Positions 3,457-64,000 of a stretch of DNA of 64,000 nucleotides are shown piece after piece (position 1 is the first letter of the stretch; each line of letters starts with the position of its first letter). The stretch is from assembly GCA_951406725.2 (NCBI GenBank), contig OX597820.1, forward strand, positions 112,468,001 through 112,532,000, read 5' to 3'. Position numbers and translations under genes: made by a program. The DNA comes from Octopus vulgaris (Eukaryota). The notes beneath the pieces were generated by a model. It searched no databases, was not told where the DNA came from, and worked only from the letters and a program-made list of their open reading frames with translations.

Positions 3457-3887
3457 CTGAAGAGAAAGGAAAAGAATCTTTGATTAGATATTTACAGCAT
3501 GAACATTTTGGTTAATCTTTTGAAATTTAGCCGGTTTTTTATCCTTTTATTTACATATGACTAGAGAACCCTTTGCCTGCTGTTCACAGTACAACACATT
3601 AGCAAACATCGTGATAGAACAAACACAATTGAACAATATAAAGGTCAGCTTAGGTCAATTTGAATGTCCAATTATTTTTCTTCTATCTCAATGCATGGTT
3701 GTTTTATGGTTTTATTTAACAGAATTTCATTGTCAGTGTATAGCACATCATTTGATCCATTTACTTAATTTTTGTATTTAGGAATGGTCATTTTGCCAGT
3801 TTAGCCGATAAGAACACACACACTATATATTTGGTATTATTTTGCTTCAGCATTATTTATTTTTTACATTAATCTTAATCTTATTTC

Positions 3888-3932
3888 GGCCAGAGTTCTT
3901 TCGTCACACTCCTGTGACCTCATCAGTGGTCC
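3888..3932 (-). ncRNA. Minimal type-I hammerhead ribozyme motif, family A
   Basis: GGACCA CUGAUGA G [GUCACA-GGAG-UGUGAC] GAAA GAAC UC^ UGGCC: core boxes, 6-bp stem II, short stems I and III. Confidence 0.75.
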
Positions 3933-4026
3933 TTTGCTTTCTTCTTTATTTGTGTGTCTCTCCTTACTAACATTTGATAAAATGGCTGACCACTAGTAAG
4001 GAGAGACACACAAATAAGAAAGCAAA

Positions 4027-4071
4027 GGTCCACTGATGAGGTCACAGGAGTGTGACGAAAGAACTCTGACC
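4027..4071 (+). ncRNA. Minimal type-I hammerhead ribozyme motif, family A
   Basis: GGUCCA CUGAUGA G GUCACA GGAG UGUGAC GAAA GAACUC UGACC. Confidence 0.7.
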
Positions 4072-60978: not shown

Positions 60979-62249
60979 CGAGGGGTGTTTGAAAAGTTTT
61001 GAGCCTAACCTAGAAACGGGCTGCTAGGTAGCTGAAACAATTTTTTCTGGTAAGTACAGTCTTTTCAGAGTATTCTTGATCATTTTCATGATTCTGATAT
61101 TTTAATTTTTTTTGTTTCAGATTTTTGAATAAACAAGTGTCGAGGTTACAAGGAAAATGGAGAAAACAACAGTGTATCATGCTGTCATAAAATACCTTCA
61201 TTTGAAAGGCATGACTCCATCAGACATCCATGAAGATAAGGTGAGAACCTTAACAGACAATGCTCCTTCATATGCAACAGTCAAACGCTGGGTAAATGAA
61301 TTCAAACGTGGCAGGGAGAGTGTGGAAGATAATCCCACACCAGGGAGGCCTCCAACTGCAACCACCGAGGACAACATTGACCTTGCTCTTGGTATGATAA
61401 TGTAAGATCAACAAATATCATGTCGCCAAATAGCTGAGAGACTGGACATCTCAAATGAAAGAGCTAACAGCATTGTGACAAAAGAACTTGGATTCTCAAA
61501 GGTTTCTGCAGGGTGGGTCCCTCGCTTTGTAACTAAACTCCTGAACAGAAAAGCATTAGGTGCACTTTGTCCACAAGCAATCTGTAACTGTTTGAAGCCG
61601 ATGGAGAGAATTTTCTTGCTCATTTCACTACTATGGATGAAAGTTGGGTCCATCAGCCTGAAACCAAAGAACAATCAAAGCAGTGGAAGCTCACATCTTG
61701 TCCTACTCCAAAGAAGGCCAGGGTCATTCCTTCAGCTGGAAAGGTCATGGTGTCTGTTTTTTTGGATTCTCAAGGTGTCTTGCTGATCAATTACCTTGAA
61801 AAGGGTCACACCATGACAGGGCTGTATTATTCTCAGCTACTGAAATGCCCCCGAGAAGTAATCAAAGAAAAAAGGCCGGGAATGCTCACCAGAGGAGTCC
61901 TTTTTTCATCACAACAATGCTCCAGCCCATTCGTCAGTGGTTGCCATGGCAACAATTCGTATTTGTGGATACGAACTTGTTCCCCATCTGCCTTATTCAC
62001 CAGACTTATCCCCCTCTGACTTTCATCTATTCCCCAAAATGAAAAAAAGCCCTGGCTGATCACCATTTTGCCAGTGACGTTTCTTGGAGTCACAAACAGA
62101 AGGGTTCTTCTACGCTGGGATAATGGCACTTCAGCACCGCTGGAAAAAGTGTTCAGCCATCGAGGGGGACTCTGTTGAAAAATAAATCATCAGAAGTCTT
62201 GTACCATGTTTTGTTCTTTTGAGGCTCAAGATTTTTCAGACACCCCTCG
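60979..62249 (+). mobile_element. Full-length but defective mariner transposon
   Basis: TA target duplication at 60977-60978 and 62250-62251; ~28-bp TIRs CGAGGGGTGTTTGAAAAGTTTTGAGCCT / AGGCTCAAGATTTTTCAGACACCCCTCG; transposase remnants from 61157 with WVPR, MDESWVH, YSPDLSPSDFHLFP; stops and frameshifts. Confidence 0.95.
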
Positions 62250-63138
62250 TATGACCTCTTGGCTGAAACAGCTGTAAGAAACTATTCTACTTTCAATGTT
62301 CTACGTTACATATTTTAATAATTACTGGTATTTTTATATGTGTAAAGCATAAAATGTTATACATGTATGTATATTGTTATAATAATTTTAAAAAAAAAAT
62401 AAATAGACGTAATATAATGTCTAAAAGTTGATGAATACCACCTCTTGATCCCCTCTATTTTTTATTGCTGTATATATATATATATATCATCAACATCATC
62501 ATCATTTAATGTCAGTTGTCCATGCTGGCATGGGTTAGATGGTTTGACTGGGCTGGCACACTGGAAGGCTGTGCCAGGATCCAGTCTGATTTGGCATAGT
62601 TTTACACAGCCAGATGCCCTTCCTAATGCCACCCACACCAAGAGTGTAATGGGTACTTTTATGTGCCACCGGCAGGGGTGCCATTTGCATGACACTAGAG
62701 TGCATTAATGTGCCAGTGGCACGGATGTCAATTTGCATGACACTGATATCTGCCACGACTGTGATTTTGCTTGGTTTGCTTGGGTCTTCTTCTCAAGTAC
62801 GACGTAATGCCAAGGCCTTGCCTATTTCCTCCATGAGGCTCAATGCTCGAAATGAACTCAGCCACATTGCCTCTATATTAAGTAGAAAGTTTCCTATTCT
62901 TTACTTTACTTGAAGTAATAGTTTGTCCTATACTTTTACAGGTGTAATAACTTGTCCTGTACTTTTCCAGGTTTATAATCTTCAGAATACTATTTCTCTT
63001 GCTCGTATTTTTCCATGTAATCCATGATTATCCAGGCATTGCTGTTAATAATGTGTCAATTAATAATTTAAGATTTTACCTTATAAAAATACATATGTAA
63101 TATGTATATATATATATATATATATATATATATATATA

Positions 63139-63314
63139 CTTTATTTTAAGCAGCAGAAAATTCAACAAAATCTGTTACTCTGAGTTTCTCGTTGCCGTTC
63201 ATCAGACAGTTTTTGCCGTTCATCAGACAGTTTTTCTAGCAAAAACTGTCTGATGAACGGCACAGAAACTCAGAGTAACAGATTTTGTTGAATTTTCTGC
63301 TGCTTAAAATAAAG
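63139..63314. mobile_element. Fold-back PLE-type element, family C, hammerhead motifs at 63172-63209 (-) and 63246-63281 (+, stem II partly deleted)
   Basis: CUGU CUGAUGA ACG-GCAA-CGA GAA ACUC-A-GAGU A^ ACAG; inverted arms with an internal ~21-bp duplication; (TA)n flanks. Confidence 0.82.
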
Positions 63315-64000
63315 CATATTACTCTACCACTGGTATTTGAGTACTCTTTTTTCCACCTTGTTTCACATTTATGTGTTTACTCCGGTATATATATATATAT
63401 ATATATATCATCAGTAGAAGTTAGAGAGTAAGTCAAAAGCTGAGAGTTTCGTGTATTGGCACTTATCAAACACAAATTTGTCCATTGTCACTCTGTAACT
63501 TGTGATGAAATAACTTCTAAAATACAAAATTTTGTAATAAATGTTAAGAGTAAACTCTGTTCTATGTGACACATTCTACCAGTATTGGAAGTTTGAAAGT
63601 GTTTAGTTAAAAAAAAAATAACTAAATAATCTGTACGTCTAATTGAATAGATCCGAAATGGAGGAAAGGCAAAGTCGACCTCAACGGAATTTGAACTCAG
63701 AACGAAATACTGCTTCTAAATTATGAAATTTTTTCAAAAACGTTATGAGTGAACCCTGTTCTATGTGACGCATTCTACCAGTATTGGAAGTTTGAAAGTG
63801 TTTAGTTAAAAAAAAAAATTAATGAAGTAATCAAAGTCAACCTCTGTGAAATTTGAACTCAAAAACGTAAAGACAGACAAAATACAGTTAAGCATTTCAC
63901 TCGACGCACTAACTTAGAAAGTAAACGTTGCTTTTAGGAATATATTCTTTATTCTTATAGCTGAAGCATTACTCTCTAACTTACTGACAGGAAATTTTGT

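Follow-up and report, generated by a model that had tools for sequence, protein, structure and literature searches.

Minimal type-I hammerhead motifs of probable Penelope-like element origin in the BMAL1 region of Octopus vulgaris

Hammerhead ribozyme motifs with unrelated stem sequences recur along a 64,000-nucleotide (nt) stretch of Octopus vulgaris DNA that carries exons of BMAL1 (contig OX597820.1, positions 112,468,001 to 112,532,000, forward strand; the whole stretch, part of a 2.80-Gb genome, is called the window below). Our analysis makes it very probable that they are minimal type-I hammerheads from the pseudo-long terminal repeats (pLTRs) of Penelope-like elements (PLEs), left in the BMAL1 introns as short, truncated and predicted mostly inactive insertions. 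The PLE link, which an earlier note on this DNA had given as background, was demonstrated for two motif families, A and C, and is likely for the rest, whose features are consistent with it.

The survey used a strict type-I descriptor that demands an exact core (CUGANGA or UUGANAA, then GAAA, then UH, with stems I and II), a stem I of at least 3 bp, a stem II of at least 3 bp (or 2 bp after a mismatch) and a near-palindromic helix III. It returned nine matches in the window against a mean of 0.4 (sd 0.57, maximum 2) in 25 local dinucleotide shuffles. Three belong to family A (3926-, 19770+ and 25433-), two to family B and two to family C, the latter being a single motif and a 21-nt duplicate of its core that uses the same GAAA; the remaining two (3457+ and 26108-) are likely chance matches, and the distinct passing motifs number six. 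With decayed copies, which are the majority, the window holds nine motif families (A, B, C, D, E, F, G, H and J) and about 20 arms, and each family is a genomic repeat; for the decayed D, E, F, H and J sites, relatives whose core is complete, or nearly so, were found in 1.4 Mb of fetched genomic DNA. All the motif sites listed in the earlier note are present, within a few bases of where it had placed them; it had put the total at about eight families and more than 15 copies. A looser descriptor allowing one core mismatch merely added noise (11 matches against 2.8 in shuffles) and was set aside.

The same excess was found in a genome sample of 100 stretches of 10 kb taken at fixed offsets from 28 large contigs (1 Mb), which gave 46 descriptor matches against 4-12 in 12 shuffles (mean about 9) and 7 in the reversed sequence. 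A match rate in shuffled sequence similar to the real one, which the earlier note had named as fatal to its claim, is thus seen neither in the window nor in the sample. At a strict tier (fully paired helix III palindrome with at least four inner bases) the sample had 27 matches, forming 19 clusters, against 0-4 in shuffles. Two further tests are independent of what the descriptor itself requires: when helix III was free to be non-palindromic, it was fully Watson-Crick palindromic in 16 of 29 motifs (15 shuffles: 1 of 66), and CUGANGA lay inside a full structure at 34 of 534 places versus 7 of 2,502 for eight decoy words. A (TA)5 run occurs within 450 nt of 19 of the 27 sample motifs against a background of 24%, and 13 of the 27 have an inverted partner; fold-backs therefore account for about half of the motifs, not for most of them as had been claimed. 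By extrapolation the genome is estimated to contain 46,000-107,000 (strict tier) or 69,000-146,000 (all) motifs in many families. Counts reported elsewhere are about 2,000-9,000 minimal hammerheads per genome (PMC4209133) and more than 6,000 motifs in 16 families for a coral (PMC7229834), and the comparison is indicative only because the descriptors differ. The census supports the very large repertoire that the earlier note had suspected, with the amendment that it is very probably a repertoire of PLE pLTR ends and not of the host. The window has about twice the density of the sample (6 in 64 kb versus 46 per Mb).

The attachment to PLEs comes from coding regions next to the motifs. For family A, the end of a GIY-YIG open reading frame (ORF) lies about 430 nt upstream of the motif in genomic loci L311 and L312 (Pfam GIY-YIG, E 3e-4 and 1.5e-4, respectively). 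A 5'-truncated PLE 3' end of the same kind is present in the window at 15030-15767 (minus strand); it comprises the C-terminus of the GIY-YIG ORF, the 3' untranslated region and a family A motif (15173-15216, an A9C variant), and aligns to L312 over 753 nt at 88%. For family C, the exact 34-nt core has 3,674 copies in the genome (control, 0), and in locus L266 it stands on either side of a 727-aa ORF, in direct repeats of 3,352 bp. The Atlas neighbours of this ORF (0.96-0.99) carry PF26215, GIY-YIG and RVT_1, and it aligns weakly by BLASTP (E=3e-7) to the reverse transcriptase (RT)/GIY-YIG ORF of locus L121. It also has the motifs of the Hydra clade of PLEs (RWK, DKT, a CxCX5C linker, CxxC and CxH, no CCHH) and a TA target; the linker is intact in 3 of 12 family C ORF rows, and F stands at the second linker cysteine in the other nine.

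A first look at the genome gave 6,136 GIY-YIG candidates, and many intact 781-aa frames are present; such first-look counts are not copy numbers, as family C had just 41 candidates against its 3,674 exact cores. The GIY-YIG loci carry their own downstream hammerhead with a U3-A8 core, plus further unrelated motif families. One of them, L121:430-5672, is a full PLE with a 359-aa ORF1, the 781-aa RT/GIY-YIG ORF and 456-bp pLTRs that are 99% identical; PLEs of this type are probably active, judging by the many intact 781-aa copies in the genome.

Insertions of families A, B and C often have the architecture of an inverted truncated copy with a tail on one end, and they sit in (TA)n or AT-rich sites. 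The fold-back insertion A1 (3772-4243) consists of two inverted PLE 3' ends bounded by a 12-nt target-site duplication, with a tail on the right arm only. Its minus-strand motif (3888-3931) passes the descriptor, with an additional G preceding stem II, only 3 bp in stem I and a helix III that pairs poorly with itself; the plus-strand motif (4028-4071) has an intact core and a weak stem I, and fails. The second family A fold-back, A3 (19452-19898), is inverted relative to A1, has the same centre junction and its own 17-nt target-site duplication, and bears motifs at 19625-19668 (minus strand, weak stem I) and 19765-19808 (plus strand, passing). A solo copy lies at 25247-25576 (minus strand), and its motif (25395-25438), in BMAL1 sense, passes. 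The five family A copies had all been called intact; three pass, and the motifs at 4028+ and 19625- keep the core with two contiguous stem I pairs only. An alternative fold of family A with a second GAAA was dropped for want of a stem I partner downstream. Elsewhere in the genome, family A forms tandem trimers of 248-340 bp.

The family C fold-back (63139-63386) lies in (TA)n and is a stub of the 3.35-kb RT/GIY-YIG element, with a 71-nt tail on its right arm; its minus-strand motif (63172-63209) passes, and the plus-strand one (63246-63281) has a stem II deletion. Ten wider family C loci contain inverted pairs as well, and 8 of 9 pairs have the 71-nt tail at exactly one end. The 21-nt tandem duplication of the 5' core (63192-63235) is common to loci L062-L065. 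A pyrimidine-rich TAG stands directly before stem I in L266 and in the window (63229-63245). This resembles the intron end at helix I reported for the D. virilis Penelope (PMC4209133); no splice joint was seen in the contigs of four runs covering the family C unit, runs tentatively taken to be of RNA, whose ends and strand are not visible.

The family B unit (54271-54684, plus strand) ends in (TA)n, and its motif (54439-54511) passes the descriptor with a U-U at positions 10.1/11.1 and a perfect 8-nt palindrome as helix III. A second copy (55511-55723, minus strand, motif 55537-55609) is identical to 54325-54537 over all 213 nt, other members of the family being at most 95% alike. This pair is convergent rather than head-to-head, and its identity points to a recent local templated insertion or conversion. 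The genome has 164 exact family B matches, and copies elsewhere form partial tandems of about 530 bp and inverted copies with a one-sided tail. An old 3' fragment of the family (14776-14989, about 73% identity) is absent from the earlier list.

Several points weigh against the PLE explanation. Six families have no demonstrated coding partner, the search for one having covered A, B and C; for family B none was found in three wider loci, and that family is therefore likely non-autonomous. Support from Rfam and Pfam is thin: no hammerhead family appears among the best 150 of the 201 Rfam matches in the window, there are no hammerhead matches at the gathering score in eight loci, the two family A GIY-YIG ends score 21.5 and 22.4 bits, just below the cut-off of 22.6, and Pfam has no family for the family C ORF. 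Family A combines a stem I of 3 bp with the lack of a stable helix III dimer, and families B and C are without the G10.1-C11.1 pair stressed by the published consensus. Covariation within families is weak. None was found in 54 family A arms, and the stem I pair that varies in 36 family B arms (U-A 15, C-G 10, U-G 8, C-A 3) could also have arisen by CpG decay. Between families the stems vary freely, with 22 helix III sequences in the 27 clusters formed by the motifs of all loci analysed, a diversity partly built into the descriptor.

Positions 10.1/11.1 are G-C in family A, U-U in 34 of 36 family B arms (G-C in the other two) and A-A in family C. Across all 27 clusters there is an identical-base mismatch (A-A, U-U or G-G) in 10, another mismatch in 3 and a pair in 14, and the cut triplet is GUH in 21.

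The expected activity of the motifs is low. Helix III dimers are predicted to be stable for B, C, D, E/J and H (-7.4 to -12.5 kcal/mol) and not for A (+1.4) or F (+4.3), so that the earlier statement of a mostly palindromic stem III stands for the former and fails for the latter two. Whole fold-backs are predicted to form long hairpins with 79-91% of bases paired, and such a hairpin would mask the sense motif. Minimal hammerheads in the literature are reported to have no activity as monomers and low activity as dimers (PMC4209133). The window motifs are thus likely to cleave weakly, if at all; of the six passing motifs, four have the sense orientation of BMAL1 with no visible purge, which is consistent with low activity.

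The function of PLE hammerheads can be approached by counting insertion ends in family C, which is young and has more than 3,600 identical cores as well as full-length elements that are intact. The exact 3' fragments that start at the predicted cut site number 4,440, and in 4,191 of them (94.4%) the sequence runs on exactly over the site; the templates were therefore likely uncleaved RNA. Of the first 30 fragments, none starts at the cut site, 12 reach at least 60 nt upstream and 17 end 5-46 nt upstream; one scored 4 only through a one-base deletion. The short arms, ending just upstream of the ribozyme, may mark the 5' end of the RNA. A cap-derived extra G at their start proved to be an artefact, since the query contained that sequence, and it was gone in an unbiased set of 30. 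Core variants have been amplified in both families, A9C in 15 of 54 family A arms and U4C as a family C subfamily, which suggests that cleavage is not required for their spread. These counts already argue against cleavage setting the 5' end of the copied RNA; if so, the near-identical family C copies would be a fossil answer to the functional question, the PLE ribozyme not defining the template's 5' end.

We propose the following route to the window insertions. The endonuclease of the element would nick both target strands, and reverse transcription would start at two sites downstream of the ribozyme, giving a tailed and a tailless end; both cDNAs would cross the ribozyme of an uncleaved RNA and then be joined head to head. 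For PAc Poseidon in vitro, the tail is reported to be set by two internal RT start sites, nicking and extension take place on both target strands, and unprocessed RNA is the main template (PMC11167929). Read-through of the cut site here matches the unprocessed template there; the two cases differ in that PAc Poseidon belongs to another clade and that the evidence there is biochemical, here from genomic copies. The ribozyme of a full element would cleave weakly, as a dimer held together by its palindromic helix III. Inside a fold-back stub, the sense motif would be tied up with its own complement in a long hairpin, and solo copies would have no partner for a dimer; host pre-mRNA would therefore be spared.

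It is tentatively suggested, as a supplement to the PLE explanation and not a replacement of it, that the fold-back stubs are themselves mobile, an intronic palindrome being transcribed with its host gene and recopied by the PLE enzyme, often nearby, in the manner of a retrotransposing miniature inverted-repeat transposable element (MITE). The centre junction of A1 and A3 occurs exactly twice in 2.8 Gb, both times in the window and 15.7 kb apart; each insertion has its own target-site duplication, their tailed arms are mutual best matches (95.4%), and 5 of the 178 exact family A cores (38-mers) of the genome lie inside this window. However, most other A and C fold-backs differ at the centre, as expected of independent formation, gene conversion acting on two neighbouring but independent insertions would look the same, and the shared junction is a single case. 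The A1/A3 junction reflects either a palindrome recopied locally as a unit or gene conversion between neighbours. Exact family A cores also cluster within 30-100 kb more than expected of 178 scattered copies (C3:16.77-16.80 Mb, C3:182.07-182.18 Mb, C11:89.71-89.74 Mb and the window).

The host gene runs on the minus strand. Its exons match BMAL1 much better than ARNT (E 1e-18 versus 7e-6, 2e-17 versus 2.5e-6 and 3e-17 versus 2e-6), and the coding exons of BMAL1/cycle (10833-41412) lie within frames at 41029-41412, 38516-38689, 36999-37265, 35682-35948, 28548-28844, 16486-16662 and 10833-11075. Two further exons are located upstream, outside the window (about +66.5 and +79.6 kb), and the motif sites from 15.2 to 63.5 kb, which fall between coding exons, are therefore intronic as the earlier note had it. 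This does not extend to the element at 3.8-4.2 kb: the last BMAL1 exon was looked for and not found, so its intronic status is not established, and it may lie in the last intron or past the gene end.

It is very unlikely that these ribozymes have been taken into host service to process or destabilise BMAL1 pre-mRNA. The BMAL1-sense orientation of four of the six passing motifs and the density of the window could be read that way, but the copies are unremarkable members of repeat families whose exact cores number 164-3,674, most of the window copies are decayed, and the excess density stems from local family A insertions; moreover, efficient cleavage would be expected to break an essential transcript. 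Nothing in the data indicates a role specific to BMAL1.

Chance matches within palindromic, AT-rich DNA transposons (MITEs) are a very improbable source: many of the elements are palindromic and in TA targets, Rfam does not recognise the motifs and a mariner element is present at 60977-62251, but the shuffle, reversed-sequence and decoy-core controls, the one-sided tails, variable centres and tandem copies, and the attached RT/GIY-YIG ORFs largely refute this origin for A, B, C and G.

The PLE explanation places the octopus motifs within a kind of sequence that has already been published. Cervera and de la Pena (2014) described the motif type and its palindromic helix III, the presence of many families in one genome, and motif pairs on opposite strands at distances of 100-700 bp (PMC4209133). 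The motifs here share with those metazoan PLE hammerheads the type-I layout, short stem I, palindromic helix III, many families and mostly solo truncated copies, as well as an extra nucleotide before stem II (family A) and the U3-A8 variant (family F and the GIY-YIG loci); they differ in the estimated number per genome, subject to the difference in descriptors, and in the identical-base mismatch at 10.1/11.1 in 10 of 27 clusters, where G-C is conserved in the published set (PMC4209133). According to Craig et al. (2021), endonuclease-positive (EN+) PLEs leave as a footprint an inverted 5'-truncated copy, a tail on one end and (TA)n targets (PMC8557442), all of which are found in the window fold-backs. 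The family C ORF resembles the Hydra clade of that study by its motifs, with the F at the second linker cysteine as a departure; the tails here are about 55-85 nt long versus 30-40, and the family C unit of 3.35 kb compares with 'generally <3 kb' (PMC8557442). Non-LTR retrozymes, which derive from PLE pLTRs, are tandem arrays of short units with a type-I hammerhead (PMC7229834; bioRxiv 10.64898/2026.07.22.740005), and the A and B tandems are like them in arrangement. Retrozymes are marked by a canonical loop-loop hammerhead and by circular RNA; the window copies, in contrast, are solo or inverted (G alone may be tandem), minimal rather than canonical, and intronic.

Among the papers listed, none on octopus hammerheads was found by title or abstract, a search whose scope did not include subscription papers and supplements; in a 2026 O. 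vulgaris repeat annotation, 31 PLE families are given as recently active, and 'hammerhead' and 'ribozyme' are absent from the main text. The octopus census is thus probably undescribed in print. A census near 10^5, with many motifs in long intronic hairpins, would bear on pre-mRNA integrity and on the substrates of cephalopod RNA editing. We also consider a combined proposal, speculative and on balance improbable, in which no animal genome counted so far is as dense in hammerheads as that of O. vulgaris (dozens of families, about 26-37 intact cores per Mb) and the fold-back stubs are self-silencing, re-mobilisable 'retro-MITEs' from which much of the double-stranded RNA that undergoes editing in cephalopods would come. 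Such 'retro-MITEs' would be long intronic hairpins that hide their ribozyme and are recopied near the host locus.

The remaining motif sites of the window are mostly decayed. Family J is found at 23136-23213 (minus strand, 5' core lost, with a full-core relative in L189) and at 27651-27709 (minus strand, a partial fold-back). The two family G motifs are in direct orientation on the minus strand; that at 32317-32396 is decayed, and that at 32836-32914 has an intact core with damage to helix III and the 3' side of stem I. At least 40 relatives of family G exist at 74-81%, and 3 of the 14 fetched pass the descriptor. Both arms of the family D fold-back (33656-33733; arms 33656-33694 minus and 33699-33733 plus) are decayed, and a complete motif with the family D helix III occurs in L142. 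Family H (44218-44277, minus strand) has a complete relative in L130, and family E (44674-44721, plus strand), whose 5' core is mutated, has them in L169 and L205. The decayed family F fold-back (54827-54895) consists of arms at 54827-54860 (minus) and 54862-54895 (plus), with a U3-A8 core in its relatives; a second family F motif (63437-63470, minus strand) has this core and has lost the 5' strand of stem I.

The region 60945-62280, taken earlier for a decayed motif, is a Tc1/mariner remnant (60977-62251, plus strand) with terminal inverted repeats, inserted in a decayed E/J-like motif whose 3' half remains at 62252-62282. Its transposase frames (61133-62016) match Pfam Transposase_1, and a short non-autonomous relative was seen in locus L153. 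A fragment of small-subunit rRNA (14192-14722) also lies in a BMAL1 intron, its best Rfam piece scoring 53.8 bits against a gathering score of 50.

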